From positions 32,001 to 96,000 of IMG/VR virus record IMGVR_UViG_3300045988_076504: a DNA stretch of 64,000 nt; one strand, given 5' to 3'. The position numbers and the translations under genes are program-made. A model generated the notes under the pieces. That model was not told the origin of the DNA, made no database searches, and was given only the letters and a program-made list of their open reading frames with translations. Shown one piece after another: positions 25,401-51,240 of the stretch. Numbering within the stretch: the stretch's first letter is position 1; every line of letters starts with the position of its first letter. Source of the stretch: a virus.

Positions 25401-28400
25401 AGAATTCTATTTTTAATTATGAAGATGATACGAAAGGCGTTATAAGAAAAACCGCAAAAGGTATATGGGATAATACATTTAATAGAAAAGATGCAAAACG
25501 CAGAAGCCAACTTAGAGACGATTATAATACATATATAGGTATCTTAGCAACGAGGTTGAACGAGATAAATGATTCCAAACAGTTCTTGGACGAAAAGACA
25601 AGAGATCTTATTTCTGCAAGATTTAATCAAGGTACATTTGAAGACTATGTGAACAACAATCAAGCTAATCCTCTTGTAGCGGAACTATCTACAAAAATTG
25701 AAAAAGATGAACACGGATATCATTTGGCTGACGCATATAAAGATAACCAAGATCTACAAGAGAAGTTTAAATTGCTACAAGAAAATTATTAGACTCACAA
25801 TTCGAATGCAGAAGTACTCCATAGTCTTATAGGTTAGATGCAGACGATGCAGCTTTTACAAGACATGGAGAAGATTAAACAACTCCCAGGAGGAACCACA
25901 CTGTCATCTAGAGCTAAGTTTGAAGTTGATCGTACTAAAAAACGACTTCGTGAGTTACATGGCGATAATATAAAGCTTGATACAGAAGAAGATGTTAAGA
26001 ACTTTGCAGCATCACAAGGCTATAATATAGACGACGATTATGTGGATGCATTAAGACAGGTATCTGATGCTAGAATGCAAGTGAACTTCAATACGGAAAT
26101 GTTCAACAGGCTCATTACAAATACGAAAGACGCTGTAAAAGCTGTCAAATCATTTAAAGAGAATCGTAAAGCCGATGAGGAGTTAAGATAGAGTATTGAA
26201 GATGATTTCTACAACAATGAAATAGATCGTCAAAAGTTCGAAGCGTCGGAAATAAACGATGATAACAATACATTTACAAAAGACGGTAAAACGTATGTTG
26301 TACGTGATGATTCTGATGGTGTACGTAGAGTATACGAATACGACTCTGAAAACGACAAGCTTGTTCCTACAAATAAATAGTTCAATAAACGAGAGTGGTA
26401 CGATAGTAGATAGTAGTTTGATGCTGAAACAGCAGACCATGAAAAACTCAGAGCTAAATATGACGATTATAAAAGCTTGCTCGATAAAGATGTAAATGAT
26501 CTGACGGATCAAGAGAAAGAAAGACTTGAAACATACAAAGGTATGTTAGATAAGTTTAATCGTTTTGATGATTCTGAGCAAGCAAGAAATAAGTATTTAG
26601 AAGATGCTTCTAAGACTCCAGGATTAAAAACAGATTATACAGAAACCTTTAGAAATTTATCAGAGTACGCTAGCGAAAAAGGATATACTCAAGATCAATT
26701 TGATAGCCTTGTAAACGAATTAGCAAAAACATCAAACGATGGTTATAGAACCAGAGAATAGAAAATACGCAAATGGGTTGAAGATGGTAGAGATGTCGAA
26801 TATTCTTATACAGGAGATTCTTATTTTATTGGAAGCGATCATGTGTCAAAAGAAGCTTATGATTATGCTAAATGGTTGCAAAAACGTAACGAAAATCAAG
26901 ATGACGTTGTAGAAGATGACGAAGTTTTGGTAGAGCCTCCAATTGTTCCAGAGACTCGACCAGAAGATGAAGATAACTAGAGAAAAGCTTATCAAAAGCC
27001 AGAAACTACGTTTACGCATAATGGAAAGCCTATCACCTTGCAACAAGCTTAGGTTTTAACACAACTGCAGCCGTATCTAGCATCTGATGAAAAATATCAT
27101 TATGAATGGCGTACTAGTGAAAACTATTTTATAGAAGAGAATGGTAAAATTGTAATGTACAATCGTCTACATAGTTTGTTAGATCCGTATATTGCAGATG
27201 AGCCAGAAAAAACAGAATCTATAAAAGAAAATACAAGAATATTACAAGCCGCAAGAGACAAATGGAAAACCGCTATTGACAATAACGAATCTTCTGACCG
27301 AATTAAAGAGTTAAGAAAAGAGTATGTTTCATTAATCGAACAAATGCGTGACGATTATAACGAAATAGTTATGCTCAAATATAGTCAGAATGAATCAGAT
27401 GTTAAAAGATTCTATTTAAATTTTGATGGATATTTTCAAAATGACGACATTCTTATAAGCGATGATGCTGTAAACGCAATGGCTACCATGCTTGCTCGTA
27501 AAGATAACAATTTGTTCGAAGTTGGATCTACCACAGTATCTGGTACAATTGTAGACGAAATAGCAAGATCTGTATTCGCACATTCTCGTGTGGACAATAT
27601 TCCAAGATTTAAAATGAGCGATGAAACATTTTCTAAACTCGTTAAAGATCTAGAGAAAGAAAGAGATCGCTGGGAATCACTTGGTTATACTATTGTAACA
27701 GAAGGATTGTGTTTCCATGGTGAAATCCAAGACAAAGATGGTAATATAGTCCGAGTTGCTGGAGAAACAGACATGTTAGCAATAGCTCCAGACGGGTCTA
27801 TTACAATCGTAGATTATAAAACGTCTAAGAAATCATGGGAAACTAAACAACGTCCTACAGGTGTACAAAGTACCGAAAGTGTTATAGACGCATTGGATTG
27901 GCAATATAGCAAACGCTATGCTTTTGGTAAACGACAACGTTCTACAGCAAGAGTATTCTATACAAATCAATTGAACGCATACAGGCAAATGATAACAAAC
28001 TGTACTGGATTGTCTGTTGCAAATCTTCAACTGATGGGATTTTAGACAGATATTGAAGAAAGTAATGATAGAATATTGTTAAACAAAATAAAATCTATTA
28101 GCGAACCTACAATTGTAGATATTGCTGTATTAGATCCTGTATTGAGTGAACATTCTTATATAGAACAACGTAGTGTAATAGAAGAAAGAATAAAGGAAAC
28201 TAAAGAGCGTACAAAAACCGCATTTAAAGAATATACCGATAAGTTTGCTGCTGTTGGAGAATTGATGCAAGACGTTCAAGATCCTAAATTACAAGCTTTG
28301 TATAAATATGCGAAAGAACAGATTGATAAGATTGGAGACATTGATCAGATCAACGACTTGGACAGATTAAACTAGCTTTATAATTGGATCAATAATAGCA

Positions 28401-31400
28401 TGTCCAGTTTACGTAATTTGGAAGCGGAAGCTCAACAAGCATTGAATGCTCAATCAGAAGATGCGTCTAGAAACGAAGGTGTTACACCTAACAGCAAAAA
28501 ATTCAATGCTCCACACAGAGTGTATAGTGATGAAGAGTTGAAACATTATAATCACACAGCACAGGATCCTAAATTCTTAAACGCCCAATAGAAGAAAGAA
28601 TTACAAACGTTCAAAGATTGGACAACACGACCAGATTTCGCATAGAATGTTCAGTTTGAAATAGATTTCGATGCGTCCGGGTTTATACATGGAGTACCTA
28701 CAGCGGGTACCAGATTAAAATTCAAATCTATAAGTTATAACGGTGTTAAATTATCACCATCCGTTGTGCAGAATATTTCATTTATGTGGTCTGTTGATCA
28801 AGACGCATCATCATTACGCCAGCGTCTTATACAATGTTTTAATGACAATTATGACGATATCAAATCTGGCAAAAAGAAAATCATATTAAAGAACGTACAA
28901 AGAACAAACGGTAAATTACTATTCGGTGATACTTCTAAAAATGTACAAGAAGCGTTGGAATTGTCAGACGAACAAGTTTCAAATTTGTTAAATTATGATA
29001 GCGATGCTGTACTATTAATATCGGATAGTGCTGGTATTGTACGTAGATTGGATAGTGAAGATAAGAAAGCCGGGTCTGGAACCGCTGAGCGTATTTCTAA
29101 AAAAGAAGAAAATAGAAACCGTCCTGGTATTGTATACATACAAAAGTAGCTGCATTATGCTGAAGATGAAGGATCTGGAAATAAACCACACACAGCTTTA
29201 ATTCCGCTCACGCCTGCTAAAATGTCATCTGGTGCAGTAGATCTCATAATAGATATTCTTACAAACACCGGTAAATCCAAAAATATGTCTGCAAAAGACA
29301 ACAACGGAAATTCAATACCGGGACCTATAAATAGATCATTACTGTTACACTACTTAATCCGTTTTGGAGGTGGTGCTGAAGCTATGATGAATAGTTTCCA
29401 ATTCAATTATGAAAGTAATGGTCAAAACGGTTTGGACTACAGTAAAGTATTCATAAGTACAGATAGAGGTTAGACAAAAACAACTTATAACTTAAAAGAC
29501 ATACAAGATGTATAGAAATTAAGAGAGTGGTTGTTAAATAATGCATATTTGAATGTACAAAATATATCTTTGATTCGAGATAATGTAGCAACATCTAAGG
29601 ACGGTATTTTTGCAGGAGTAAAAGAATGGTTTGATAATCATCCTGATGTAGAATCTATATCATACTCTGACGAATTTGTAATAACGAGAGATGATGTAAA
29701 TTCTAATATCGGAGGAATACAATGGATGATTAAAAACAACTGGTTGCAATCTCAGTATACTGGTATTACGGACGCTATTGTATCTGCTAATGATTTTGAC
29801 ATAATAGATCAAGTTCAAAACGCTCCAGAAAATATTTAGAAACAGCAAGATGATTTTGATCGAGCTGTGGAAGAGCAACTAGGACCGATTCCGGACGGTG
29901 TAAACGATAACAACGATCAAAACACAACAAACGATGCTCCGATCTCTTTTGATGACTGTGATAACGCTTGGGGAAACATAATAGATCCTAGCGCGACACT
30001 ATTCATGAGAAACCCAGAACATCCAAAACGACCGATAACAGAAAAACGTCAAATGGACAAAGCTATTCAAGATGTCAAAAGGATGTGTGGAGATACAGTT
30101 CTCATAGAAACGTTGGACAGTGTTCAAATGGCTGAAAGATTTGGAGATGCTGTTGGAGCATGTACTCAAGCAAGTATTGTGTTATCGTACGGTGCGGAAA
30201 ACGGAGTTCAATACCACGAAGCATTTCACAGAGTTGTAGAATTAGCAATGCCAAAAGATGAGCGAGACAAATTGTATAATCTGTACAAGACTAAATACGC
30301 TAAGAATACAAACCTTAAAGATAAGGATGTTGCTGAAGATTTAGCCGATATGTATTTTGATTACAGTAAGAATGTATGGCACCCGAGAAATAAGTTGTTT
30401 GCAAAACTATTCTCGAAAATATATAATTATATAAATGCTTTATTGACAACAAAAAGTTTTAAATTTGCAGCAACGTTTGTTAGAATTGATTACGGTAAAT
30501 ATGCTAAGAATGAAATAACAAAAGAAAATCAAGACCGTTTTACAAAAGAATTCCACAATGTACTGAAAATGACATTGAAAGATTCTACTGGTAAGGAGCA
30601 TGTATTTAATAATGTATATACACAAACACAACTAAAAGACGCTGTTGATGTATTGTTACCTTTAATAATCAAATCTCAAGGTATCGATATTCTTGGTTCT
30701 AACGCAGATACTCTAAAAACAGATAAAAAATCTTTGCTTGCAGAAGGTTCTAAATTCGCACAAATATATAGACAGTTAACGTGTGGTGATGCTACTGAAT
30801 TATAGTTAAATCAAGCTGTTGCGGAAGGTAAGTTGTCTCCACTAACAAGAAATAATGCATTAGCTTTACGAGAAGTGTTTGACAACTGGTCTCTTGTACA
30901 ACCGATGTTGGAAGACAAATTACGTGCCGTCGGACTTCGTTCGAAACTTGGAGATGTCAATCAGATAAGTGCAGATGTAACTAGTCATACAGACGATGCC
31001 TTTTATTCTCATTCTATGAGTGACGATATAGGTTCTGCGATGCTTTATTTACTTAGTACTATACCAAATCAAAGGTATGTTACACAAGAAGATGTGGCTT
31101 CTGGCTTAGCTAAAAACATGTATGCTACAGATAAAAATGGAAATATTATAATGGAGAATGGTAAACCGAAACGCGCTACTATTCCAGCAATACGTAATAG
31201 TTTCGGAATGACTTCGTATCTTCCATTTAAAGCTGTACACCAAAGAATGTTAACAGAATTGCACGATGTAAAAGATGTTCGTGATTTGGTAGAAAAACTT
31301 AAGAAGTTAGGAGAAGTAGATTACTTATTTAACACTCTTGCACAGTATCTCGAAAGATTTAGATACTTGTCATATATAAGGTTTTCAGATAAAGAGAAAT

Positions 31401-34400
31401 TTGGCGAATATGTAGGATTCCCTGTCGTGATGTATAAAAACGCAATAGTCGATCCGTCATATTATATTGCAGATACATCTATTCGTAATGAAGATACAAT
31501 GTATCCTAAACAAATACGCCTCGTTAAGGATTTAAAGGACAAAAAGGGCAATCTCATATGTAAGGCTGGTGATATATTACAAGGAGCTGCTATATTGTAG
31601 GATCAAGATAAACAAACATTAACAACGTTGTTTTATCAGTCTATAAAATCACAGAAGATGAATTTCAACTTCTTCAACATTAGAAATTCTAAAGGTGAGA
31701 ATGGAAGATATGAATATTCATATTAGCCTACAAATACAGACAGATCAATATCTCAGTTGCCTATAGGGTGGTTTGATAATATTAGAATAGGTCTTACAGG
31801 TTTGTATAACAAAGATGGTTCTGTTAATAAGTCTAACAAATCATTTGAAACGACAAGGCAATTCTTGATGTCCATAAGAAACCAGCTTATTAATAATTCT
31901 GGATAGGTATAGATTGGTGATAAGATATATAAAATGAGCGACGCCGCTGATTTCGATCATGTTGTTTCTGCTACTGTACAATCTTTAAATAATGTTGGCA
32001 TAATGGTAAATAAAGCAACATGGTACAACATGTTGCATCGATTAAATCCGAACGAAACCGATTACACAATATCGTTTAGAGAGATCATGACAGCAAGTAA
32101 CGAAAAAGGTCTTAGTATCGCGCCATTTATAGAAAAAGGTGGAGTATTAGATAAATTACAAAAAGCTGTTGATTCTGGCGATTTGAATATGTTTACACAA
32201 GACGTTGCACAAACTGGAAAGAGAGGTGGTTATTCTGGAGCATATTTATACGCTAGAAATAATTTTGTTAGAAGACTTGCTGAAGAAACCGGTGTATATC
32301 GGTCAGCAACATCTGAAATAATGACAATTGGAGCAGGAGATACTAAATTGTATATGTATGCTCAAAACAATACCGCATCTGATGTTACTGACGATTTGAA
32401 TTCATCTCTTAACGAAGACGGTACGGTTAGAGAAGGATCTATTTTGAGCGATATGTAGAATGTAGAATATGTAGTTTATCATGACGACCGTGGCGGTATA
32501 CATGGATCTGTAATAGCAAAGGCTTTATTAGATCCTAATTTTAATAGAAATCATAACAGACTCGAAGTTATTACAGAAGCCGGTTCTAAACAAAGATTTG
32601 GACCAAGAGATAGCGTAAAGTTTGCAGAAATGGAAAAACGAACAGATTATCTTTCTCGTATTCAAAAAATAACAGACGGTCTTATCATATTCCCAACATT
32701 GTCTGATAAATCCACATATATGACAATAAAAGGTTTTGATAAACAGTACAGACTTCCAGGATTTAATTACGACTAGAATATTACAGAAACAAGTTCTACT
32801 GCAGATTTAAATAATTTCGGGAAACTTCCGTTCATAAATAAAAACAACGGTGCTCTTATATTTGATGCTGCTGATAAATACAACAATTATTCTCAAAACG
32901 AAGTGATCGACCAGTTTATAGAGTATTATGAAGCAGAACATCGTAATGTGTTAAAAACGTTAAATGAACTTGGATTTGGTCCGGACAAAAGTAAAAAATT
33001 ACCTAAAGAATAGCTGGTTAAGAACTATCATACCGGTAGTATGAACGGTGCGAGATATACTTCTATTTCTGGAATATATGATGAAAATGGTAATTTTATA
33101 TCATTTAATTTTAAAACCGATTCCGAAGATAAAGGTGTTATTGAATGCAACAAGATTGCAGAAACAGAATTCTTTAGTAAGCCGATAGAAGAAAAAAGAG
33201 CGATTGTTGCTAGAATATTAAAACACAGACTTGATGACGAATTACGCGGTTTGGTTGATGCCGGAATTATACAAAAGCAAAATAATGACAATTCTTCTCG
33301 GAAGAATGCAGATTATAATAATTATAAAAACGTGTTTTTATCGAATAGTGTGATAACACAACTAAAATAGGCGTATTCGTTAAATGAAAACTTTAAGAAA
33401 GCTGCGCCTGGATCATTAAATACTGAAAGTTTAGCTGTAGTAGCGTATGTATACGATATTATGTGTAAACATCTGATGTGTATAGAAGAAACACGTAGAT
33501 TCTATACAGGTATGCCCCAGTTCTTTAAAACAAGTTTCGGAGAAGATGGTCGTTTAACTGTTTTTGGAAATGATGAAACAAAACGTTACGGTGGTGTCGG
33601 ATCTACTGGTGTAAACAATAGAGAAGATATTCCGGGAATGAACGATGATTATCGTGTAGCTGAAATAAATGATTGGGAAACACCGTCTCCGGTTTTAGAT
33701 TCTTTAGGAACGTTGTTTAAGATTGGAGAATATAGAGAGGCAGTCGCTAATATAAGATTGCGAGAGCTTGGAGAAAATGCAAACGAAATTTAGAAATATG
33801 CTTTGTATGATTCTGTAAATTAGATGGACGAAGATGCAATGCGAGAAGTACTAGATGAAGCAGGCGTATTAAAAATGCTGGATAAAAAGATAGAAAAAGA
33901 AGCAAAGGCTTTCTCTAATGTGAATGTAGCTGATGGTACGGCATTCATTAGTGACAAGATGTGCGAAAATCTTTTGAAACAGCGTGGCGCATTTACAAAA
34001 GCTGTTGAAAATGCATTTAAAATACTGCGTAGTGATTCTGACGATTATCTGAAATTGTCCCAGTCATATAAAATTATACACAACGCTATGATCTCTACAT
34101 AGAAATATTCAGCGTTTGGTTATAGAATGGAGAATGGTACACCTGTACATTATTATAATAAATATGCATTATTTCCGGTCTTTAAAGGAATATCGTACGG
34201 CTTTATGAAGAATCTGTATGAAAAAATGAATGACGCTGAGAATGGAGTAGATGTTGTATTGTTTACATCTGCTGTTAAAGCAGGATCTCGTGGAGCACAG
34301 CGTTTTGATCCGAACATATCTCAAGAAGAAATTAAAAATTTCTCGTTTAAGGGTCATATATATAAGTAGAAATACAAACATATGCGTAGACAGTTGAACA

Positions 34401-35236
34401 CTGATCCTAGAACAGACGAAATAATGTCTGCTGGTACACAGGCGTTAAAAGTTGTATTATCTACATTACGAGACGGATAGACATACAATATACTTGGACC
34501 AGACGGTTAGATACACGAAGCCACATCTTCCGAAGTTAGAGATCGTGTAATGGAATTACTCAATAAGATTGCTGATTCAGGGTGGAATAAGTTGTAGGAT
34601 CAATTCTTCACAAACGGCAACCTTGATTATTCAAAACTACAAGACTTCTTAATTCATGAGTTACTTGGAAGAGATGCTGATCAAAATATACTCGATGCTT
34701 TGTAGCTCAATGAAAACAAAGATGGCTTCATAGTAGATTTAAATAGTGTTTCTAACATGACTTGGGTTGAAAGTATTTTGACGTCCAAAGTAAACAAAGA
34801 TGTTATTGATTTACAACTTAAGGGAAACGCATTCTATCAGAGATCTGTATTTGGTATGGATAGTCCTTATATCGCAATGAGCGACGATGAAGTGTCCAAC
34901 GAAATAAATGGAGGAAAACCATTACAAATGATCAATGAAGAAGGTAGTATGGATGCTGTGGTATCTATAGATTATTTTATGGATATTATTCCAAAAGAAT
35001 ACAAATACAATTTTAATAAAGCTAAGCAGTGGCTTATAGATAATGGTATTATATCCGGTGTAAAAACTGGAGAAATAGCATGGAGCAATGCAGAAGCAAA
35101 CACCATGTCGTATCGTATTCCTACACAGGCTGCATCTTCAATCGGCGCATTACGATTTGTAGATGTGTTACCTATTGTCAGAGACACTATTGTACTGCCT
35201 AAAGAATTTACAGCTTAGACTGGTTCTGACTTCGAT
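22445..35236 (+). CDS. Giant virion protein, exon 1 (includes PD-(D/E)XK nuclease-like and HExxH segments; ends in ...TGSDFD)
   Basis: Twenty track ORFs from 22838 to 34757 are all in frame 2. Every junction I checked is TAG (about 40 in-frame TAGs by manual count). ATG at 22445. Exon 1 ends at U35236, the 5' splice site. Confidence 0.75.
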
Positions 35237-36162
35237 AAACATCAATGTCGAAATAAAAGTATGTGAATTGCTGGGAAATCCCTATGGGACAATCAGCAGC
35301 CTAGCCCTACGAAAGGGAAGGTTCAACGACTAATAGTATATTATATAATAATTCCTCATAAATTGAAGAAAGAAATGAAAAAGATTTTAAAAAATAGATT
35401 AAATGAAAATGGTAGAAATCTCCTAATTGCCGCTGCACTTGGAGATGGATGTATAAGTAAACAAGGATAGATGTTAATAAATCATTCTTGGAAGCAATAC
35501 GAATATTGTAAATGGAAACGAGAACTTTTAAAAAAGAACGGAATAAAAGTAGGTGTTTTACAACGTTTTGAAGGTTCAAATGGATATTTAAAACACACAA
35601 TACAATATAGATTTTGCATTGGTATTACACCATTTAACAAAGTTCTAAGACGTATTATGTACAATGAACACGGTAAACATTATTCTCGTAAATTATTAAA
35701 CAGACTAAGTCAACAAGGTCTTGCCTTGTGGTTTATGGACGACGGTGCAATATTACGTAGAAAATATAAAGGTAAATATTGCGGGTTCTATTTAAGAATA
35801 TCTACATATTGTACATCACAAGAAGCTGATGATATTATTAAATATTTTGTTGAAGAATGGGATATACACCCTACCAAAGTACATGAAAATAAAATAAAAC
35901 ATTATGATGCTTATACTATCAATTTTGGAGCAAAAGAAGGTAAGAAGTTAATAGATATAATTAAGCCTTATATGTGTCCAAGTATGATGTATAAAGTGTT
36001 ATATGATATCGAAGAATTAAAATCTTATTATGATATACAAGATGTGAGGGAAGTTCTCACAGAAAGTACATTAGAGTCTGATAGACTACTAATGGAAGCG
36101 CATACTACATCGAAAGATGTAAAGATATAGTCTAATCTTCGTAGCAATACGAAGTATAAATG
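35237..36162 (+). mobile_element. Group I intron (926 nt) carrying a LAGLIDADG homing endonuclease ORF
   Basis: P1: exon TTCGAU (35231-35236) pairs with GUCGAA (35247-35252), with a U-G pair at the splice site. P10: AUCAAU (35241-35246) pairs with exon 2 AUUGAU (36163-36168). Terminal G at 36162. GNRA hairpins CCC-UACGAAA-GGG and CUUCGUA-GCAA-UACGAAG. Splicing restores the frame and gives ...GSDFD|IDKLYM... Confidence 0.85.
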
Positions 36163-36163
36163 A
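35375..36163 (+). CDS. LAGLIDADG homing endonuclease (double-motif)
   Basis: ATG at 35375. Motif 1 is LLIAAALGDGCI and motif 2 is LALWFMDDGAIL. The in-frame TAG at 35468 separates motif 1 from the rest, so it must be read as sense. The TAG at 36128 is also read through, and TGA at 36161-36163 straddles the 3' splice site. Confidence 0.85.
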
Positions 36164-39100
36164 TTGATAAGTTATATATGTCTACACTTCATTATGATGT
36201 AGAGTCTGTTGACAACGATTATATCGATAAAAAAGGATAGATACACAGAAGAAAGACATATAACGCTAAATCTTACAATTTATCAGATGTTACAAACAAT
36301 AACACAAACGAGTTGTTGCGCATATATTTGTCTTTGTTAAAAGATACCGGATAGTACAAAGATGGAAAGATTGTAGGTGGAAGATACGGACACGTATTAA
36401 GAAGATCTATTGATAGTGATACGGATTTGATAAAAGAGGTTCTTTCAGAAATAGAAAGTAGTATAGAACAAAAAGCATACGAACCGTATCAATTTGAAAG
36501 TATGTCGTTTTAGGTTAATACCAGATCTGCATTTGCAACCGGTAAAACTGGTATCGGACCATTTGCGCTGAATAACAACAGTCAAATTCTTACACAAATA
36601 TATGGCATCAAGTTTATAAACGATGGTGGTATATTAAGTTCTTTCGGAGCTTTATCATTAGATAGGACTTCGGACGTTGATGGAAAATCTATATTATCTT
36701 GGATTTCTGGTATGATTAATGCTCACGTAGACGTTGCGAAAGACCCGTATATATTGAGATTAAATATCAATAAAGACACATATAATCTTGCAGCATTGTT
36801 ATTACGTTTAGGATTTGGAAGACACGCTCTTTATTTCTTAAACAATCCTGTAATGAGAGAGCTTTCTGCTATACGAAATGAGCAGGACGGATAGATTGTA
36901 AACGACCCTGGAAAAACTCCAACACAGCGTAAAGAAAAAGCTGAGAATGAATACATTAAAGATGTATTCGGTAGTAATAGTGTGGCATTCTCATACGTAA
37001 ATGCAAAACCAGATGAAAAAGATGATATTGCTAAACGAGCTTTTAAAACGATTGTACAGATATTTGGAAATCCTTTTAAAGAACATAAAGATACTACAAT
37101 ATTACAAAGTATTTGTTAGAGTTTGTATGGAGAAAATGGTGAGAAAAAGGTAACAGATCTGTCAAAGGACAAGATATATAAGTTGGAAGATGGTACAAAA
37201 TTATCACCATTTGAAGTTCAACAATATGTATATATAGCATCTAAAGAATTTGAATCTTACGCTTAGGGTTTGTCAGACTTAGTACAATATACTAAAATCG
37301 ACACAAAGAAACAAGGTATAAATTATACAGAACAGTAGAAGTATTTGCAAGGTTATGAGAAACTTTACAATAGCGGAATGTTTAATTCAAATCTGAAACA
37401 ATTGTTGAACGATTCTTATATACATACAAAAACAATATACGGTACTTCATTCTTACCTAGAGTATTAGGCGGACAAATGATCCATATGTCATATCAATTC
37501 CAAGCTGAAACAGAATCGATTTTGGATAAAATTAACAACCATTCTAAAAATTCTAGAGAAGCTGTACAAAAAGCAATGCTGTGTTATATTAAACAAAAAG
37601 CTTTCAATAAGGCGTTTAAAGATTATGTTGATAAATATAACGAGCAAAATAATACAGACTACACAATAGAGAAATATTGGGAACATTTAATAAAAGGAAA
37701 CGATACTTTATCTAATCGTATTTAGAAGCTACAGAGATGGATATAGGCTGATAATAAAGGACTGCTAAAAGAATTCGGTTAGAATGGTGTTATAACAAAT
37801 GCGATACTTAAGAACTTATATCCGGTACCGTACATATCTCAATATGGGCAAGATCACTTTGATATTATCACTTTAGGAAATAATAGCGAAGATGAAAAAT
37901 CTATAAGTAATGATTATATATATTCATGGGAACAGATGTTAAATTATACAAATAGTGAACGTCTGGGATTACAGAAATATATTAGAGATTTAGCTAACGA
38001 TCTTGCTATATACGCATTTATGACATCTGCAGACAGTAAAGGATTTACAAAATTCTTTAAATACGCGCCACTTCAATGGAGAAAAGAGTTTGGATATTGT
38101 GATAATATTGCGGAAGCAAACAAAGAATATCAAGAAGGTGGTCTCACATTAACTACAGACAATGTTAGCGAATACGGTATCGATTTCGATGATTTTATAT
38201 AGAATTTCTATTACGACAACAATATATTACCGGAAACGTCTTTAACTGATCGTAATGGTCGCCAACAAATGGTTACTTCAGCATTTACATATAACACTCT
38301 TGACGAATACGGTAATCCTACATTACGTACAGAACCTAAAAATATAATAGGTCTTAACATGCGTGGTAATAAATATGCACAAAGTATTAGTAAAAACAAA
38401 GACGGATACTTCCCAGAATATATAAAAACACGTAGAAACGGAACACGATATAACGATAACGATCAATTCCTATTGTATAAACTCGTAGATGTCGGAATTG
38501 TAAAGAATGGAAATGTCGAATTAGAATATCCAATATATCAAATTATAAACGCCAAAGGTTTACAAATGCAAATTGGTTCACAAACATATCAATTCTATTC
38601 TTGTGGAATGAATGATAATTACGAGCGTTCTCAATTTACCACGAAAGATAAATCTGGAAATAGGGTAAAGCCAACCATGGAGCAAGTGCAAGAGTCTTAT
38701 AATAACCGCAAAGCTGCTTTATAGAAATACATCAATGAGAATAATTATTCTATACTTGATGCGGTTAAGAAAGCAGGACTCGTTAGTAAGAATGATATAT
38801 TTGGAGGACAGTTATCTAGTATACAAGAAGCGGCATATAGCGGTATAGGTTCAAATAAGAATACTGTGAATGTTAACTTCGGAGCAAGCGATAATCCACA
38901 TTTGTCTAATTTTGCAAAACGTCCTATTTCTGATATATTTGACGTAGTTGAAAGTTTTATTAATTCTCCAGAGTTTTATAAAATAAAATCTACGGTTAAA
39001 CATAAGGCAGACACTGTAGAAAATGCGTTCTAGGCGTTAAAAGTGTTGTATTCTGATTTGAATGATAATGATAAGGTGGTTAAATTTAATCATATTATAT

Positions 39101-39465
39101 CACTACCGTCTGCAAAACAAGCTAGAGCGGAAGGTAGATCGTTACCTATTAGTAGTACAAAACTTAAAATGTGGGACGATATAAGTACTGATGTATTACA
39201 GTCTTTGATGAGGGCTTCTTTTGAGCAGAATGAAGACGCAGCGCAAGCATTGGTTGATACTGGTGATAAAATAATAACACATGATAACGCAAAAGGTGAA
39301 TCTTTAGATGATAGATTTGCTCCAGCATTGACTCAGATACGCCAAGAGTTAATAGATGGAGGACATGCTCCAAACACTGTAAAACAACAATAGTCTTTGA
39401 AAGATTATCCCGCTAACGAGGCTCTTGATGAATTAGCAGATCAAATAGACGAACAATGTAAATAA
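36163..39465 (+). CDS. Giant virion protein, exon 2 (RNAP-like region continues; C-terminal NADAR domain)
   Basis: Starts IDKLYMSTLHYD. ORFs 36712, 37345, 37936, 38269 and 39043 are all in frame 1, joined by TAGs (about 14). A genuine TAA is at 39463-39465. Exons 1 and 2 together give about 5364 codons. Confidence 0.75.
38860..39393 (+). other. NADAR (YbiA/DUF1768-like) domain at the C-terminus of the giant protein
   Basis: PHLSNFAKRPI, VENAF-(TAG)-ALK and WDDISTDVLQSLMRASFEQNEDAAQALVDTGDKIITH parallel my recollection of E. coli YbiA: FSNFAAWPI, EHYFQAQK, WESVKEQVMRKALRAKFEQHAELRALLLATAPAKLVEH. Confidence 0.75.
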
Positions 39466-39474
39466 CAAATCATT

Positions 39475-42400
39475 ATGGTATGTTTAATTAAAAGTAAATA
39501 TAAAGAAGAATTAGATTTATACACATAGTTGCTAGGCTCTGAAAAACGAGCCTACGCGATTTTGTGTTGTAATAACGGATATACTCTAGACAAGACTAAA
39601 GATGGAAAACCATCTAAATTGTATAATGATTTGTTAGAGTATTATAAAGGAGATGTAACAAAAGCTGTGCAAAAGAAAGCATAGCTTTTTACATCTGAAT
39701 TTACAAAAGATTACGGTCAATGGTACCAAGACGGATATGAAATATCTGACGAATATAAAGATGTATTTGATGAGAATGGAGAACCGCTGCTTAACGGCAC
39801 ACATTTTGGTACAGCAGATAATAAGATATTACTCGGCGGGCAGAAAAAATTTGCATCAATAGAAGAGGAGGAACAATATATATTAGAGCACGCTACACGT
39901 GATGAAAATGGAAAACTATTGGCACCTAATGGCAAACCTTCAAATCTTACAGAAAAACAATACGCTCAAGTGAGAACTAAAGCCTTTAAAGAGTGGTTTG
40001 GTGATTGGGAGAATGATCCAGAGAGTGCTTCTAAGGTAATAGATGAAAATGGAGAACCTTTGGTTGTTTATCATAATACACCATTTAAATTCAATGGTAT
40101 ATTTGATATGGATCATGTTTCAAGAATTATGCCGTAGATGTCAGAGCCATTTGGTCATGTAAGGACTAAAGAAACCGCCAATACTATAAAAGGTTCACAA
40201 TACGCTCTTTTCCTCAATTTAAAAAATCCATTAGAAACTCCTGATTTTGTCCACGAATCTGTAAGTTCCATGTTATCCGAGCTGTATAAACAAGGTATCA
40301 TTTCTAGAGAAAAATATTCTTCTCTCAGAGGAATATCTAATTCAGAATTAAGAAATTTGATGCTTTCTTTGGGATATGATGGTACAAAATATGAAAATAA
40401 AGCAGAAAGAGGCGGGATTTCTTATAGTTTTATAACACCTAATCAAATTAAATCAGCAACAGACAACGTAGGTACATTCTCTAAAACTAACGATAATATA
40501 TACAAAAGACGTGGTGAAAAGAGAGACAACCATATGTACAACAGGGAGCGTGCTGTAAAATATATTAAGGATCAAGGATACACAATAGACAATCTGGTTC
40601 ATGACACATATGAGACAAGATTTGAAGTCACATTAAAAGCTAAAACTAAAGAAGACGTTTGGAGATCGTATATAAAGAATATGGATCCTGCGTTAAAGGT
40701 TAAATATGCAGGAGTACGTATTGGTAAGAAAGACCCTAGACTTGAAGTTTAGATTAAAACCAAAGAAAGTGAGTCACTAACTAATCTAAATCAGTTTCTT
40801 GATAAAAAATCTTTAAATACTGCGCAAGATCTTTTACAATATATTATAAAACAAACTAAAGACGAGAATAATCAGAATTTTTCTTTCATCCGTGCTGTAT
40901 TAAAAGATATTAATAAAACTGTTCCCGAATTATTTAGTAATATCAATGTCAAAGTAATTGCCGATAACAATGGTAATTATTCTGCGAAATATGACAATAA
41001 TACAAAAACTATAATTATAAATAGTGCAAGATCGTTCGGCAACGAAAATAATTTCAACGATGAGTTAATACAGACATTGACTCATGAAATGATACATGCT
41101 GTTACGGTGGAAGCGTTATAGAGATCTAAACAATTGCGTGAAAGAGCTGAAAGATTATTATCAGAGCTCAAAAAACAATTTAACAATGATCCAGATATTC
41201 AAGGTATACAGGATGTGTACGAAATGGTTGCCGAATTAAGTAACGATGAATTTATCAAAAAATTGTAGTAGATACAATATTCTACTGATGAAACATGGTT
41301 TGATAAGATAAGAAGATTTATATCTACTGTTATTCGTCACTATCTACGTAAAATAGGGCTACAATATAAAAATACCGCATATTCAGAACTCGCTAATATT
41401 TTTGTACAATCTGCGTACGGTAAGAAAACCGGTTTATAGATGTCTGAAAACATAGATGAAAAGACGGTTTTTAATAGAAACTCTAAAAAACGCATACAAG
41501 AAGCTAAAAAGAAAGTAAAAGCTAAACTGAAGGAAGGTATACATATTGTCGGAACACGTGATTCTACATAGAAGCTTATAGACAAGTTGTCGCAGGATAT
41601 AATATTAGGAACACGTAGTAAAAATAAAGCATATTCTTCTAAAAGAAACAGTAGTGTATCTTACGGAAATGAAAGGTAGATTGCCAGAAACCAAGAAGCT
41701 GTAAATTTTGTAGACGAGCAAGCTAAAACTATAAACGAAGCTATAGCTGAGCGTGATGCAGAAAAACAATTAACCGAACAAGCAAAACTTATACTCGATT
41801 TTATAGATCACGCTGATTCTGATATAAATGAAGTACTACAAATGCTTAAAAACGCATAGGATAACGACTACGATTTAATATATTATAATGTCGACCAATT
41901 TGGAAATAGATTGTATCAAGATCCGTCTGGCAATTCTATAACAGCTCAAACTGCAGGAAATAATACTATAGCCAAGTAGTTTTCATTCGATGATATACAA
42001 TATATGACAACCGATATTTTAGGTTATTATCAAAAACTTCTAAGCGACATTGACAATATGTTATTGTAGGTACCAGTTGGCAAAAATGCAATTGTTGATG
42101 AAATTCGCGATCTTATGCAATCATTAAGACTACACGATCAACTTCGAGCTGCATCTAATATGAAACGACAAGCGCAAGAGAAAATGCTTGATTTTTATAT
42201 AGATCAACGTATAAATCAACAAGAATCATCAGAACTTACTGATGAAATGAAACAGAGGTTGTCTATCAACATGAAAAAATGGGTAAAATCCCAATATGAT
42301 TTTGGAGATGTTGGAAGTTTCGCTGTATGGACGCAACTCATATCTGATTCAAAAAGTCCTATTGTGAGAATGATGGCAGATGAAATCTATACAATGAATC

Positions 42401-45400
42401 AAGAAATAGATAGTGCTATTGTTCCGAGGGGTGAAGAATTAGAAAAAGCTTTAAAAGAAGCCGAAAACGAAATGTCTATTTTAGGAAATCATAATCCAGT
42501 CAACGTAATGACGATGTTGATGCAAAAGGATAGACGTGGTTATTACAACGGAGATTTTGTACAACCTATTAACAGAAGACAATATTTTCAAGATCTTGAA
42601 GATTTTAAAACTGCGTTGTTGTTTGGAAAGGGAGGGTTGCAAGACTAGTTAAAGAAAAAGATCAGCAATGACTTTGAATTAGAACTAGACGAATATGGAG
42701 AACCTGCAATACCAACAGGTGTTGAGTTTGATGATATATACAAAGACTACAAACGTAAGATGGAAACGTTTATATGTGATCATGCTAACAGACGTTTTAC
42801 GAAAGAGTATTATTTGTCTCGCATAGACACATTGTCTCCAACTACTATTCGTGTATTAGATCAATTTAGTAGGAAAATTAGTAATTTGAAAAATTCTGCA
42901 ACGGTTGATGGTAAATTCAGACCAGACCTGCTAAGTTCTAAACAGCGTGCAGAATTAGCACAGCTTTAGAAAGATAGACAGGAATTAAGTAACCCGTATG
43001 ATCAGTTTGGAGAATTAAAAGATCCGGATTTTATTGAAGGAATCGTAGCTAAGGAATTAAATGACTGGCAGGACGTAATAAATGGAGAGATAAAATATAA
43101 AAGCGACGTAGAAGCGTTCAACGAATGTCTTAATAATATACAATCTCAAGCAGAAAAAGATCAATTTAAACGCATGTTTGCATATGTTGGTTTAAATCCT
43201 AACATGTATAACTTTTTAGCAAAATATGAGTATATAGGTCAAAATGATGCTGTTAGACAATTACTTGACGAAATAAGCGAACTACGTAAGAAACTTCGTA
43301 AACTAATCGGAATAAACAAAGATCGTTCGTCATATCTTGGTTATAATTGGGAATAGTTATTCGATATTCGTACAGGAGAGATAAAAAACGAAAAACTTTT
43401 AGCAGAAATACGTAACGTTGATGATTAGTTACAACTTAAATCACAAATGTTGCGTAATATAAGGAAGAGCGACAAAGAAGACGAAGATACATTTGGCGAC
43501 AAATGGCAACTCATTCCAGGCGTTTCGTATGGCAGATTATTTACACAAATGTATTATGGTAGTGTAAATATAGATCCTACTTAGAGTAGTACTCAGACTG
43601 TATATTCTCCAAATAACGACACTGTTTATGAAATCGTACGTAATAATTATATAAATTATCTGACTAGTAATGGAATGTCAATACAAGACGCTACAGATAA
43701 AGCATCTTAGATGTTAACTATAGGTCATAATACACCGTTGTCCATTTTCATGGTGTAGATGCCTAGCAGCAAAACATTTAAATACGAAGATGAAAATGGT
43801 GTCGAGCATAGTGAACCGTCTTTTGTATGGATTCCAAATCAATTATTTAGTAAGGTGGATACTGAAAATTCATCTTCTAGGTTTATAAATAAGCACTTTG
43901 ACGAATCATCCGGAGAAAGTGTACAGCCGAAGGAAGAAGACTATAGAGACGAGCGGTATTACGAAATGATAAAGCATCCAAAACTTAACGATTTATACGA
44001 CAAGCTCGTAAAAGGTATGTAGGATGTTTACAGTATATTGCCGTATTCTGGTAAATACGATATGAGACTTCCACAAATGGGAGCTAACACAGCTGCGATG
44101 TTGACAAGAAATTTATCAAACGATTATGGTTTTCATTTTGCATCAAACCTACGGTCTGTATTTAATAGATTTGCCAACGCTACTGAGATAGATACTGATT
44201 ATTATATTCCAGAATACAATAGACGACCAGATGGCAGTACTATTAAAAACATACCAATTAGGTATATAAACAGAATAGATGATTCTAGAAATATATCTTC
44301 AGACTTAGCTGGTGGTGTCATAGCGATGTTGAAAATGGCTACTAACTATAACGTTAAAAGTAAACATATATCTAAATTTGAATCTATATTAAATTCTATT
44401 AAGGAAAACGATGTTGGAGAATCTAATCAATCTCGTGTAGTAGAAGGAATGCTCGACAGATTAATGTATGAAAATCAAAACAATACAAAGAAAAACAAGG
44501 ATGTTGAAGATATAAGTAAGATTAGACGTATATTCATAGGTGGCCCTAAAACTCTGTTAAAACGTTTAGGAATCGCAAGAGGTGCTTCAACACTTATAAA
44601 CCTTGCAGGTAGAGGTGTATCTATGATAGTTTCATTTTTAGATCCTTTGCTTAGTACGTTTATAGAATCACTTACCGGTAGATATTATGGTGCGCGCGAT
44701 CTTATGTGTGGTGTATTCGATACATGTAGAGAGTTCCCATTAATGCTTGCTAGTATTTCTAGAAGAAAATCTTTTAGTAAAACTATGGCTATTATAGACG
44801 CTCTCGGTATGGAAAAACCTATAGAGCATAGATTTTCTAATATGCATCATTCTTCTATAAGACGACTTCTTTCTGACAATTTAATGATGAAAGGATTTGA
44901 AGTTGGAGATTATACGATAAAAGCTTTTAACGTAAATAGTATATTTAGAACTTATAGAATGTACACCGATAGCAACGGGTAGGTTTCGTTCTTAAATAAA
45001 TACGACTATATACAACATTGTATACAAGACGGGATGTCTAAAAAAGATGCGGTGAAAGCTTACAAAAGTGCAAGAAATGCTCGTTCTTATTTATATGTTA
45101 AAAATGGAAGCTTAGCTTTCAAGAGTGGTATGACAGAAGATCAATTTAGAAAACTTGGAAATGCTGCGAAAAAGATTTCACAGAATATCACACTTATGGC
45201 TAATACTGAAGATAAAACGTGGATGCAAACTAATCCGTGGACAGCTTTCATTACAATGTTGCGTACATTTATGCTTGTAGGATTTGGAGAAAGGTTTAAG
45301 AATTTTAATGATTTTATTGTTGGTACAGACGAACATTACGATCCTACAACCGGAAATGTTATTACTGATATATCTGATAGAAATCTTACGAGTCGTGAAA

Positions 45401-46215
45401 TAAAACAATAGAAAAAATAGCATTATTATAGAGGAGGTTATAATTTTATGACAGGTCACATTGAAAATGGTATATATATGAGTAACCTCAAAGCTCTTAA
45501 AAGATTAGTGTGGGATGCTTAGAAACACAGAATTAGATTCAATCGCTTTTTCTTGAAATATAGTAATATGACACAAGAAGAACTTAAAAAGTCTGACATA
45601 TCTATGGCGGAATTATATTCACTTAAGCGTATATTATTAGAATTGTCTGTCGTTGCAGGTTGTGTTACAATGTCTGTTTTAGTAAATAGACATTGTCAAG
45701 GGTTGGATCCAGATGACGATGATAATTATTGGTGGTTCTTGTTAAATTCAATTTTCATGAGAATTGGTATTGAACGTGTTACAATGTATAATCCTTAGAC
45801 TGTTAGTGATTTGATTACGTCTATAACAACATTAACTAGTGCAACTTCTAAATTATTTGGTGTATTTGATGTACTTGGTGATTTCTTAGGTCTTACAGAT
45901 CACGATCCTAATGAAATCATAACATCGAATAGTGCATATAATGGCTATACACGGTCTTACAGAGCTACAATGAACGCTCTTTCAATTTTCGGTACAGCTG
46001 GTTGGTTTGCAACAATGCCTAAATCATTAGGAGGTGGTGGAGCTAGAGCTCTTGACAAGTCTGCAGGATGGTATGCTAAAACTGCTCCTTGGAGGTTGTT
46101 ATATAAGAATCAAGATGCTGGATATACACCAGTAGAAAAAGATTATAAAGATCCGTCTCTTGCGACAGATGATATTTCAAATTCTGATTTAGCTACAGAC
46201 GACGTTATAGAATAA
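39475..46215 (+). CDS. Polyvalent-type giant virion protein (about 2246 codons): ART-like domain, HExxH zincin motif, C-terminal hydrophobic segments
   Basis: ATG at 39475 follows the TAA at 39463. Ten track ORFs (39919 to 45811) are all in frame 1, and the 40753-42115 gap was verified codon by codon to contain TAG only. About 26 TAGs. TAA at 46213. Motifs: FKEWFGDWE..DENGEPLVVYHNT...GYDGTKY...PNQIKSATDNVGTF, and LTHEMIHAV at 41083-41097. Confidence 0.7.
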
Positions 46216-46252: not shown

Positions 46253-46296
46253 AAAAAAAGAGGGTGGTAGTTATTTGCTAACTATCACCCTGTTTT
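46253..46296. terminator. Bidirectional intrinsic terminator at the convergent module junction
   Basis: 12-bp stem AGGGTGGTAGTT (46261-46272) / AACTATCACCCT (46280-46291) with one G-U pair. It is flanked by A8 upstream (a U-tract for the - strand) and GTTTT downstream. It overlaps the last codons of the - strand gene ending at 46271. Confidence 0.7.
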
Positions 46297-46771
46297 CGTA
46301 TATACGATCAAACTCTTCGATAGTTGGAGCATAGTCGTCTTCTGGTACCGACGATCTATCAACTCCAAATATTTGCATAGAAGAATTTAGGAGACGATTG
46401 TTCAGGTCGTCATCATCGAGTCCCCAAAATTGCAAAACACGGGTTGCTCGATTTCCTGTAGGTACTCTTCCTTTAAACAAATATCTTGAAAAGCTATCGA
46501 AAAGTTGAAGTGTATATACCGTATATGGTTTATTGTTTACTCTTATATGTTTTACAGAACGTAGCGATTTTTGTTCTCGGATTTTCATCCATCTAATCTT
46601 ACTTTCTCTTGTATCGACAGTATCATCATACATTAAGAATAAACAATATTCTAAGCTGGGTCTGTTTTGATCGTATATATACGCATCGACAAACCCAGCT
46701 TGTTTTGTAATATCATCCTTAGTTATTGTATCAACCGCGAAAGGAATGATACATTTTATCTGTGTAGACAT
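46271..46771 (-). CDS. Hypothetical protein
   Basis: Intact 166-aa ORF under the standard code. TAA stop. Confidence 0.75.
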   Translation of the reverse strand: MSTQIKCIIPFAVDTITKDDITKQAGFVDAYIYDQNRPSLEYCLFLMYDDTVDTRESKIRWMKIREQKSLRSVKHIRVNNKPYTVYTLQLFDSFSRYLFKGRVPTGNRATRVLQFWGLDDDDLNNRLLNSSMQIFGVDRSSVPEDDYAPTIEEFDRIYENRVIVSK

Positions 46772-46776
46772 AAGAT

Positions 46777-47751
46777 TCAGAGATTCAAATATTCTATACC
46801 GTTGTTTTCATAATAACCGCGAGTATGAGTCCAGTCACCTCTATTTCTATACCATACTATGTCAAACATAGCAGATTCAATGTCATCGAGACGAGATTCA
46901 AGTTGTTCCGGAACAAACTCAAATACCCTCACCTCGTTATCAGACACTGTATCAATAGCAATTATGTAGACCCCAAATGTCCACCCTTTACTATCCTGGT
47001 GTAGTTCGTTTTGTATGTACCATTCTGCTGCCAGTTGATAAAACATAAACTGTCTGAAATAGTCATATTGCTCAACACTTTTTTCAAAATTGTGTATATG
47101 CACAGTTGTTTTTAAATCCATTATTGTACATTCTTTCTTTTCAATATCAAACTTAACACTGTCAAGAAGAGATTTACATTGCACAACACCATTCATAGCT
47201 CTGTATGTCCAGTTTATATGAAATTCATGATGTGCATCAGGATCATCTAACAAAGGTTTTGCTGCCACATGTTTATCTATATTCTGCTTAATAGACCATA
47301 ACAACTTCATATCGTATTGTGTGATATATGTGTGTTCTGTATCTTTAAGGGATTTGATATAAGAATTCAACGTAGAGGCTATTTCCTTTGCTTCTGAGAG
47401 CATTTTAGCTTCAGACTTACCAACTATACTATATACCTTCTTATAAGCATCTAGAAGGGCTAAATCAGGCTCTATTTCAGTAGTGCTGACCAACTCTTGA
47501 CAGAATTTCTCCTGTTGCTGAGATTTAGGTTTCTGCATACCTGAAACTCGATAATGTTTTTTAAACTCGTCTGGTTGCAAAAGCCACATATGAATCATGG
47601 TTCCTTTGCTCATAGCTCGCGATTCTTCGTCTGGAATTTCACCAGACATCTTTTTATAAAAATAGGATGGTCCTCCATAAAGGAGCCATCCTATCGCTGT
47701 ATTGTTTATACGAGATTTATCCTCGTAATAAGGAATTTCAACCGACATCAT
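46777..47751 (-). CDS. PD-(D/E)XK (RecB/Cas4-like) nuclease
   Basis: 324-aa ORF. Has CTIMDLKTT (the D/ExK motif) followed by QYDYFRQFMFYQLAAEWY (QxxxY-like), and GTMIHMWLL upstream. Confidence 0.75.
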   Translation of the reverse strand: MMSVEIPYYEDKSRINNTAIGWLLYGGPSYFYKKMSGEIPDEESRAMSKGTMIHMWLLQPDEFKKHYRVSGMQKPKSQQQEKFCQELVSTTEIEPDLALLDAYKKVYSIVGKSEAKMLSEAKEIASTLNSYIKSLKDTEHTYITQYDMKLLWSIKQNIDKHVAAKPLLDDPDAHHEFHINWTYRAMNGVVQCKSLLDSVKFDIEKKECTIMDLKTTVHIHNFEKSVEQYDYFRQFMFYQLAAEWYIQNELHQDSKGWTFGVYIIAIDTVSDNEVRVFEFVPEQLESRLDDIESAMFDIVWYRNRGDWTHTRGYYENNGIEYLNL

Positions 47752-47980
47752 ATCTCAAATATCCTTTTATTTGTGAACATTTTTCAGAATCCGTATACTC
47801 TGCATTATCTATTATGTCTCTTACTTTTCTGTACAAGTTATGCCATTTATAGTAATGTATAGCTTTGGTTCTTTCTTCTAGCTTATGGTTCAATACTATT
47901 TCAATGATTGTACCAGTCACAACTGACATCAGTATAATACAAGTACAAACAATAATAAGAGTTATTTCTAATTCACTCAT
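47738..47980 (-). CDS. Small membrane protein
   Basis: 80-aa ORF with N-terminal TM segment LIIVCTCIILMSVVTGTII. Its stop overlaps the next gene's start. Confidence 0.6.
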   Translation of the reverse strand: MSELEITLIIVCTCIILMSVVTGTIIEIVLNHKLEERTKAIHYYKWHNLYRKVRDIIDNAEYTDSEKCSQIKGYLRYDVG

Positions 47981-48131
47981 TGCATTCGTCGTATAATAAA
48001 TGATCCAATTCTTGAATTTTACGTATAAGATTCATAGCTGTTTCTGGGTCTCTATTTAATATAGCTGAATAAACCTGTTGTTTAGTGTCATTCAGCTCTT
48101 TCCTTATTCGTCCTTCTTCAAGAATGTCCAT
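47973..48131 (-). CDS. Small hypothetical protein (52 aa)
   Basis: Not in the track because it is under 60 aa. Reads ATG 48131-48129 ... TGA 47975-47973 (MDILEEGRIRKELNDTKQQ...). It is overlap-coupled to both neighbouring genes. Confidence 0.4.
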   Translation of the reverse strand: MDILEEGRIRKELNDTKQQVYSAILNRDPETAMNLIRKIQELDHLLYDECNE

Positions 48132-48504
48132 TGCATTTAATGTCTTTTATCATTTCGTCAACTTGTTTGTGATTTCTCACAAGATAACATCGTTTTTTAC
48201 TTCGATGTTTTTTCAAATAATATTTAAAGAGTTTATATCTTAAAGGAAAAGAATCTCCCATAAGACCTTTACACTCCACAATAAAGTCTTTACCTATAAA
48301 ATCCGGCAAATATGTTATGGGGCGTATTTTTTCTCCTAAATAATCAAATTTTGGTAGTAGTGTAAAATGCTTTGGCTCATATTTAACAGGAATACCTGCT
48401 TCCATAAAAGCTTCATAAGTATAACATTCTAGTTTAGATCTAAAATGTAATCCATACTTATCGACCTTTGTCGCATTTCTCACTCTTCCTTTAGAGGTTC
48501 CCAT
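48118..48504 (-). CDS. DUF1064-like PD-(D/E)XK endonuclease (resolvase-like)
   Basis: FRSKLECYTYEAF ... YLPDFIGKDFIVECKG matches the remembered S-x-x-E ... D-F ... E-x-K pattern of DUF1064 phage nucleases. Confidence 0.65.
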   Translation of the reverse strand: MGTSKGRVRNATKVDKYGLHFRSKLECYTYEAFMEAGIPVKYEPKHFTLLPKFDYLGEKIRPITYLPDFIGKDFIVECKGLMGDSFPLRYKLFKYYLKKHRSKKRCYLVRNHKQVDEMIKDIKCNGHS

Positions 48505-49474: not shown

Positions 49475-49530
49475 GACTTAAAAGTTCTTAGTTAGTAGTA
49501 AGAATGAGAGGACTCGAACCTCTTGATTAT

Positions 49531-50443: not shown

Positions 50444-50451
50444 ATCTTCTA

Positions 50452-51201: not shown

Positions 51202-51240
51202 GTATCTATGTATCTTATTTGTTAGTTCGTTTGTTTACAA

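Follow-up and report, generated by a model that had tools for sequence, protein, structure and literature searches.

A NADAR domain at the C-terminus of a giant, intron-split virion RNA polymerase homologue in a TAG-recoded crAss-like phage

The window analysed here is a stretch of 64,000 nucleotides (nt) from a crAss-like phage, corresponding to positions 32,001 to 96,000 of the IMG/VR virus record IMGVR_UViG_3300045988_076504. Profile matches and motif content identify positions 38866-39351 (+ strand) as a NADAR domain of the His type when TAG codons are read as glutamine (Gln). The domain occupies residues ~5164-5328 of a spliced protein of 5,364 amino acids (aa) that is, by sequence comparison, homologous to the crAss virion RNA polymerase (vRNAP), and it is predicted to be an ADP-ribosyl-nucleobase glycohydrolase with guanine in DNA or RNA as its target. 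Tethered in this way, the domain might serve as a pre-loaded counter to DarT1-like ADP-ribosylation by the host, delivered on the injected polymerase, a proposal on which our judgement is evenly divided.

The NADAR domain and its active site

The motifs that an initial annotation of this DNA had assigned to the NADAR/YbiA family (LSNFAKRPI, ENAF-Q-ALK, a Trp, MRASFEQN and LV.TG.K.I.H) were all recovered in the TAG=Gln frame, with LSNFAKRP at 38902-38925, ENAFqALK at 39019-39042, the Trp codon at 39172-39174, and both MRASFEQN and LVDTGDKIITH (His codon at 39280-39282) also present. That annotation had equated the domain with the last approximately 175 residues of the protein (38860-39393). A NADAR domain does lie there, but its core is confined to 38866-39351 and is followed by a 36-aa stretch that ends in a conserved tail. 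The search with the Pfam NADAR profile (PF08719, or DUF1768) that had been proposed for the TAG=Gln translation gave a match above the gathering cutoff (35.3 versus 35.1 bits, E=1.7e-8). PHROG 1017 was matched with E=1e-9, and a single-sequence phmmer search of the PDB yielded just a weak match to YbiA (E=0.42).

Because the window's own Pfam match is marginal and partial, the domain assignment was examined at the level of the family. Starting from a close relative, an exhaustive HMMER search collected homologues in 202 representative clusters, compared with only three proteins from a word-indexed search. A profile built from 33 sequences, the window included, matches E. coli YbiA (2b3w) over nearly its full length with E=6e-16 and the NADAR structure 8bau with E=8e-9. 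All 33 aligned members match PF08719, and eight of them also match the T4 gp30.3 family PF08010. In hhalign comparisons the probability was 98.9% against YbiA and 98.8% against a T5-like phage NADAR. An AlphaFold2 model of the family member P0121 (pLDDT 84.3) has 2b3w (template modelling (TM) score 0.68) and 8bau (TM 0.56) as its sole PDB matches, and by homology the window domain is expected to share this fold.

The catalytic motif places Glu73 at 39019-39021, the TAG-encoded Gln77 at 39031-39033 and Lys80 at 39040-39042, whereas the third active-site residue, His160 (39280-39282), sits at the canonical catalytic Glu/Asp position. Across 99 aligned full-length domains, E73 and K80 never vary (99/99 each), H160 is found in 98 and Q77 in 93, and the window retains them all. 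The same is true of the other invariant or near-invariant family positions, namely LSNFA.RP, W124, SF.QN, L.TG, T159-H160, F172 and R180. Loss of the catalytic residues, which the initial annotation had named as evidence that would count against the domain, was thus not seen for E73, K80 or H160.

The spacing and identity of these residues agree with characterised enzymes. Schuller et al. 2023 described a catalytic pair, E88/K95 in E. coli C7 numbering, that is seven residues apart and is accompanied by a third residue; the corresponding pair in the P. nicotianae NADAR is E43/K50. As the third residue, YbiA-type enzymes have Glu, DarG1-type enzymes Asp and T4-type enzymes His. In hhalign alignments the family L-T-H falls on L-K-H of T4 gp30.3, and LLATGNATLTH of the family aligns without gaps to LLATKNATLIE of the T5-like NADAR, which places the family His on Glu. 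An alternative HMMER/hhalign alignment to YbiA, in which the family His pairs with the YbiA His and the Glu is gapped, was judged an artefact of the YbiA 'EH' sequence that the T4 gp30.3 and T5-like alignments resolve. Together, the +7 spacing of E73 and K80 and the T4 and T5-like His alignments characterise the domain as a His-type NADAR with a complete catalytic set.

The domain is under purifying selection. Compared with its closest relative, L005 (ENA scaffold MUNK18-1...scaffold_976; L005:6809-10930), it is 68% identical, and the ratio of nonsynonymous to synonymous divergence (dN/dS) is ~0.15 over 165 codons, against ~0.05 for the RNA polymerase (RNAP) core, with both values rough because dS is saturated in this comparison.

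Reading TAG as Gln, as in the translation named in the initial annotation, is needed to recover the domain, since the TAG at 39031-39033 lies inside the catalytic motif. Under the standard genetic code the region splits into short open reading frames (ORFs) and this motif is interrupted, and the TAG=Gln reading was preferred over it. The aligned family column is the one that holds Gln in 93 of 99 members, and the relatives P0001 and P0002, whose genes were called in the standard code, have an ordinary Gln codon at this position of ENAFqALK. The reassignment is therefore backed position by position. The in-frame TAG also rules out a stand-alone standard-code NADAR gene, and it means that the domain cannot be produced before TAG suppression is active. 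A link between NADAR synthesis and TAG suppression fits a product meant for the next infection.

The carrier polymerase and the spread of the fusion

The carrier had been described as a giant protein. It is indeed a giant, and a vRNAP homologue, but it is encoded in two exons with a group I intron between them. As reconstructed by splicing, exon 1 (22445-35236, + strand) comprises 4,264 codons, including 41 in-frame TAG codons, and ends ...TGSDFD, and exon 2 (36163-39462, + strand) supplies 1,100 codons for the remaining, C-terminal half of the RNAP core, followed by a linker, NADAR and the tail, up to a TAA stop at 39463-39465. The unspliced 4,277-codon ORF contains ...TGSDFD and then meets a stop, while the next long ORF opens with (M)IDKLY. 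Removal of the intron (35237-36162, + strand), which interrupts the motif as DFD|ID, joins the two as GSDFDIDKLY, with a U as the last base of exon 1 (35236; T in the DNA) and a G as the last base of the intron (36162). The catalytic DFDID is thereby rebuilt, and the spliced product has 55 TAG codons.

The intron matches Rfam RF00028 in two halves, at 35256-35342 (43.1 bits, E=2e-9) and 36120-36152 (23.5 bits, E=0.0016); the Rfam gathering threshold overlooked it, and both halves were recovered in E-value mode. It contains an ORF for a LAGLIDADG homing endonuclease (35375-36163, + strand; Pfam LAGLIDADG_2 E=2e-18, PHROG 11023 E=3e-20). When the segment spanning the junction was compared with the PDB by phmmer, it matched the vRNAP gp66 of phage phi14:2 (6vr4_A) with E=9e-23, and this alignment crosses the splice junction, placing TGSDFDIDKLYM opposite TGSDFDIDKMYV. 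The same insertion site recurs in other phages, since cr131_1 has an additional gene at the same site of its RNAP and the end of P0032, '...SDFDKYRC', resembles the window's read-through, '...SDFDKHQC'.

The NADAR-RNAP fusion is widespread in crAss-like phages and is not unique to the window. Among the best 150 of the 202 representative clusters, 57 have proteins of at least 2,000 aa, 47 carry DFDxD, and for 36 the homology to the window's RNAP core is significant. The NADAR domain lies downstream of the core in 26 of these 36 clusters and upstream in 10, often 10-60 residues from the C-terminus. Across ~50,000 annotated phage genomes, the domain was found in just four crassviruses, always within giant proteins of the RNAP block. 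One of these is cr126_1, where it is located at the N-terminus of an ortholog of ΦcrAss001 Gp50 that GenBank labels a 'DUF1768 domain-containing protein'.

Within the genus Kolpuevirus, cr126_1 has a NADAR block of ~170 aa (L001:8857-10056), and the congeneric 'frurule', an isolate from Bacteroides cellulosilyticus, lacks exactly that block (L009:5650-6549), with flanks that are 86-92% identical between the two phages. NADAR is thus a movable accessory cassette of crAss cargo proteins, found at variable positions in the giants and showing arms-race behaviour. A NADAR of the same clade (42% identity to a consensus-like member) also occurs in Bacillus phage vB_BspM_AgentSmith (MW749006.1 46400-46786), within a protein annotated as toprim domain-containing, which is a fusion to a nucleic-acid enzyme beyond the crassviruses.

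Downstream of the NADAR core, the protein closes with a conserved 23-aa tail, SLKDYPANEALDELADQIDEQCK (39394-39462, + strand), whose near-terminal Cys is encoded at 39457-39459. The tail, ...DELADQIDEQCK, has 22 of 23 residues in common with L005 and a dN/dS of 0.008 despite synonymous divergence. A Cys occurs among the final six residues in 110 of 150 related, mostly giant, proteins (binomial p ~1e-84). The expectation is merely 1.4% because the related proteins are extremely poor in Cys (0.24%). Examples of such endings are ...NHCKGGK in cr130_1, ...KHCKN in cr272_1 and ...KYCKGGN in cr131_1, and counterparts of the tail were also seen at L003:10504-10626, L004:12463-12585 and L002:10657-10779. 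The Cys tail may be a packaging, ejection or processing signal.

L005 carries an extra segment of ~215 aa between NADAR and this tail, which had no match in Pfam. In P0034, NADAR is followed by a RecD/PIF1-type helicase. These polymerases seem to have, in their C-terminal region, a variable slot for added domains. Further upstream, exon 1 residues 1728-1806 (~27626-27862) give a sub-threshold match to PD-(D/E)XK nucleases (E=7e-4, 20 bits; cutoff 22 bits). The N-terminal part of the giant protein also has an HExxH motif near residue 2590 (~30200), 'YHEAFHRV', and in the representative P0006 a comparable 'YHEAFHYV' comes after the NADAR. The nuclease match and the HExxH motif may represent extra enzymatic passenger domains or a self-processing protease.

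Proposed function and rival explanations

In the proposed mechanism, the giant vRNAP-NADAR protein would be made late in infection, once TAG is decoded as Gln, loaded into the capsid as cargo, and ejected at the next infection before or along with the DNA, as for its homologues. The tethered eraser would then strip ADP-ribose placed by a DarT1-like host transferase on the incoming genome or nascent transcripts, allowing the injected polymerase to transcribe the early genes before any phage gene could be expressed. Removal of lesions by a tethered NADAR would be useful because early transcription depends wholly on that polymerase. Packaging and ejection of the carrier are a reasonable inference by homology, with phi14:2 gp66 and ΦcrAss001 Gp47/49/50 as precedents, because the protein is a homologue of the crAss vRNAP and its gene lies in the virion and cargo module. 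The ΦcrAss001 proteins Gp47/49/50 were detected in virions by mass spectrometry (PMC10172136), and the phi14:2 RNAP gp66 is translocated together with DNA (PMC7886860).

The chemistry has precedents among phage and bacterial proteins. NADARs reverse the guanine ADP-ribosylation produced by DarT1 (PMC11543638), and those of T4 (gp30.3), T5-like phages and Bas60, named AdfN, counter DarTG1 (PMC11825919), and those of T4 and T5-like phages take ADP-ribose off DNA (PMC11825919; PMC11125620). The window domain resembles the AdfN proteins (T4 gp30.3, T5-like Bas32/33 and Bas60; Johannesman et al. 2025, Cihlova et al. 2024) in being a NADAR encoded by a phage and in having the E...K(+7) pair. Its third active-site residue is changed from Glu to His as in T4 gp30.3, the profile similarity of its family is highest to the T5-like type (98.8%, as given above), and the same guanine de-ADP-ribosylation is presumed. 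However, AdfN is produced during infection as a small, free-standing protein, whereas the window domain is the C-terminal module of a spliced, TAG-recoded vRNAP of 5,364 aa that is presumably pre-made. The fold and E/K pair are also shared with the DarG1 or BC4488-type antitoxin of DarTG1 (Schuller et al. 2023), and the same chemistry would be expected. In contrast to DarG1, which has Asp as its third residue and DarT1 as its neighbour, the window domain has His, lacks an N-terminal extension and belongs to a phage and not to a toxin-antitoxin operon. It is flanked on one side by the RNAP region of its own protein and on the other by a giant protein with an ART-PolyVal ADP-ribosyltransferase (ART) domain, not DarT.

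Several observations weigh against a counter-DarT1 function. The margin of the Pfam NADAR match is just 0.2 bits and the match is partial, covering profile positions 33-123 of 163. In the 99-domain alignment, the lineage of the window and L005 has changed INIYAG to VNVNFG, W167 to S, QNP to QNE and G104 to A, and replacement of these conserved non-catalytic residues could alter or abolish activity. Outside infection, DarT1 toxicity was not relieved by a T4-type (His) NADAR (PMC11125620), and the T4-type enzyme requires the phage context (PMC11825919), which leaves specificity uncertain. Protease-like HExxH motifs occur in both giant proteins, and retention of the C-terminus through maturation is only presumed. 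The domain is absent from most cultured crassviruses among the annotated phage genomes, and the literature on DarTG with Bacteroides or Bacteroidota held nothing relevant on DarT1-like enzymes in these hosts. Finally, the ART domain next door offers another partner for the eraser.

This ART domain (40042-40479, + strand) occupies residues 190-335 of the next giant ORF (39475-46215, + strand), a neighbour and possible functional partner that encodes 2,246 aa with 26 TAG=Gln codons. It matches PF18760 over the whole profile (1-140; E=8e-11, 43.3 bits versus a cutoff of 31.2), so that an eraser and a writer of ADP-ribose lie ~650 nt apart in adjacent giant proteins. By analogy, the ART-PolyVal giant may be an injected host-modifying enzyme resembling T4 Alt. 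The same ORF has an HExxH motif, 'LTHEMIHAV', with a weak SprT-like match. NADAR could be the cognate partner of the phage's own, presumably injected, ART, where the ART would alter host targets and the polymerase-tethered NADAR would keep phage DNA or RNA clean or act as an antidote in the producing cell. Such a pair would mirror the logic of DarT-NADAR toxin-antitoxin systems, and NADARs do pair genomically with ARTs (DarT1-NADAR, YarT-YbiA). The order NADAR then ART recurs in cr130_1, and ART-like segments are present within a few NADAR-bearing giants (P0044, P0098 and P0085). However, cr126_1 and cr272_1 have NADAR but no detectable ART, cr85_1, cr271_1, ctcc615, cr115_1, cr10_1, cr4_1 and BF1-TP2 have ART but no NADAR, and the downstream giant of three distant NADAR-vRNAP loci has no recorded ART match. 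Moreover, ARTs of polyvalent proteins are predicted to modify proteins (Iyer 2017), whereas NADARs are known only for nucleobase-linked ADP-ribose. Strict co-occurrence of NADAR and ART was examined across crassviruses and was not found. We keep the pairing as a rival, and an unlikely one, because the two domains are otherwise independently distributed. A broader conception, speculative and in our estimate unlikely, treats the giant polymerase and cargo proteins that crassviruses inject as a chassis for swappable counter-defence cassettes. NADAR would 'proofread' the ADP-ribosylated template or transcript co-transcriptionally and, in this lineage, would act alongside the phage's own injected ART as a virion-delivered writer/eraser system, in which host nucleic acids would be modified and phage ones would stay clean.

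The remaining rivals concern the substrate or activity of the domain. An eraser directed at RNA and not DNA would clear guanosine or cytidine ADP-ribose from nascent phage transcripts or host RNAs, and would thereby protect the early mRNAs against a host transferase that targets RNA. In vitro, guanosine-ADP-ribose on RNA is hydrolysed by NADARs, that of T4 among them (PMC11833690), a 2026 paper reports cytidine ADP-ribosylation to be reversed by NADARs, and an RNA polymerase tether would put the domain at the emerging transcript. Even so, we consider this improbable, given that no RNA-specific feature was found in the domain and that DNA is the only substrate on which phage NADARs have been demonstrated to act in vivo (PMC11825919). 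The marginal Pfam score and the lineage-specific changes at several positions that the family conserves strongly would also be compatible with a module without a hydrolase role, either a structural or binding domain (for ADP-ribose or the toxin) or a relic, and Johannesman et al. mention a phage NADAR that is effective without enzymatic activity. The window retains every invariant residue (the E/K/H set, W124 and R180 among them), which, together with the dN/dS of 0.15 against a relative with saturated synonymous sites and an intact catalytic set in both the window and L005 lineages, is unlike decay and makes such a module quite improbable. Least probable by far is a metabolic N-glycosidase of the YbiA type acting on riboflavin-pathway intermediates or other small molecules. 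Its support is that E. coli YbiA is the top-scoring solved structure in the profile search. However, the last-strand Glu that defines the YbiA family is His in the window, fusion to a virion RNAP and presence or absence of the cassette in close relatives are unlike a housekeeping function, and the phage NADARs outside the YbiA type that have been tested act on DNA (PMC11825919).

If the counter-DarT1 function is correct, it would solve a problem of timing. Phage NADARs were demonstrated to act against DarTG1 only in 2024-2025, and every one described is small and produced after infection begins. Crassviruses are the most abundant phages of the human gut, and because their first transcripts need the injected polymerase, a lesion on the DNA as it enters would prove fatal too early for an anti-defence gene to be expressed. 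A pre-packaged eraser tethered to that polymerase would be the first virion-delivered enzymatic anti-toxin, and the finding predicts that ADP-ribosylating defences are of importance in Bacteroidota, a group in which they have received very little study. Material for testing is available in a domain of ~165 aa with defined catalytic residues, the natural pair of cr126_1 and 'frurule', and the adjacent transferase.

The arrangement also differs from other virion-delivered systems. The polymerase is homologous to phi14:2 gp66 (6VR4) and the ΦcrAss001 Gp49/Gp50 block across DFDID and lies in the same gene block, behind the genes for muzzle and cargo proteins, but compared with gp66 it is ~2.5 times longer, split by an intron at the catalytic motif, TAG-recoded and equipped with a NADAR that is absent from characterised polymerases. 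T4 Alt (an ADP-ribosyltransferase), T4 IPI*, P1 DarA/DarB and polyvalent proteins share the concept of capsid-loaded proteins that act before phage gene expression, but none is an ADP-ribose eraser. Iyer et al. 2017 noted ART fusions to N4-like vRNAPs, and NADAR/YbiA is not among the polyvalent-protein domains reported there. Among the papers that could be searched, none was found to link NADAR, YbiA or DUF1768 with crAss-like phages or Crassvirales. The NADAR family and its anti-defence role are already known, whereas the fused, presumably packaged form and its spread appear not to have been described previously. The published anti-DarTG1 role of AdfN, the wide occurrence of the crAss fusion and the ART domain in the next giant ORF were points absent from the initial annotation.

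Genetic code and genome setting

When TAG is treated as a sense codon in an ORF scan, ORFs of 100 aa or more add up to 81.2 kb, compared with 55.8 kb otherwise, and the long ORFs obtained include 22436-35266 (4,277 codons), 36160-39465 (1,102 codons) and 39466-46215 (2,250 codons). Nearly all in-frame TAG codons are located in the + strand block 1-46215, with up to 41 per gene, and the - strand genes of 46271-64000 have zero or one each. This distribution is consistent with late-gene-specific recoding, which has been described for crAss-like phages (PMC7886860). Although TAG is clearly read as Gln, no suppressor tRNA with a CUA anticodon was found by Rfam or ARAGORN within the 64-kb window. 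A tRNA-like gene at 49531-49602 (- strand; Rfam 36.6 bits) was overlooked by ARAGORN at default settings and is reported under relaxed settings as 'tRNA-?(Asn|Stop)(atta)' with an 8-nt anticodon loop.

A megablast of 36160-46215 against annotated phages returned zero matches, and the closest annotated phages to the RNAP core are Suoliviridae, at 35-44% identity by tblastn. On the basis of these two results the phage is placed as a new delta-group-like crassvirus, and by the same sequence comparisons the source is a novel TAG-recoded, Suoliviridae-like gut crassvirus.

The giant RNAP gene comes directly after a virion module (11495-22442, + strand) of crAss ring, muzzle and cargo genes. Pfam matches identify Ring 2 at 11495-12199 (CrAss_Ring_2, E=5e-51), Ring 1 at 12610-13476 (CrAss_Ring_1, E=4e-100) and the muzzle protein at 13448-18670 (crAss_MUZ, E=6e-198), all on the + strand, and two cargo-sized ORFs on the same strand (18649-20721 and 20697-22442) follow the muzzle gene at the end of the module. 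The gene order is identical at the distant NADAR-vRNAP locus L012.

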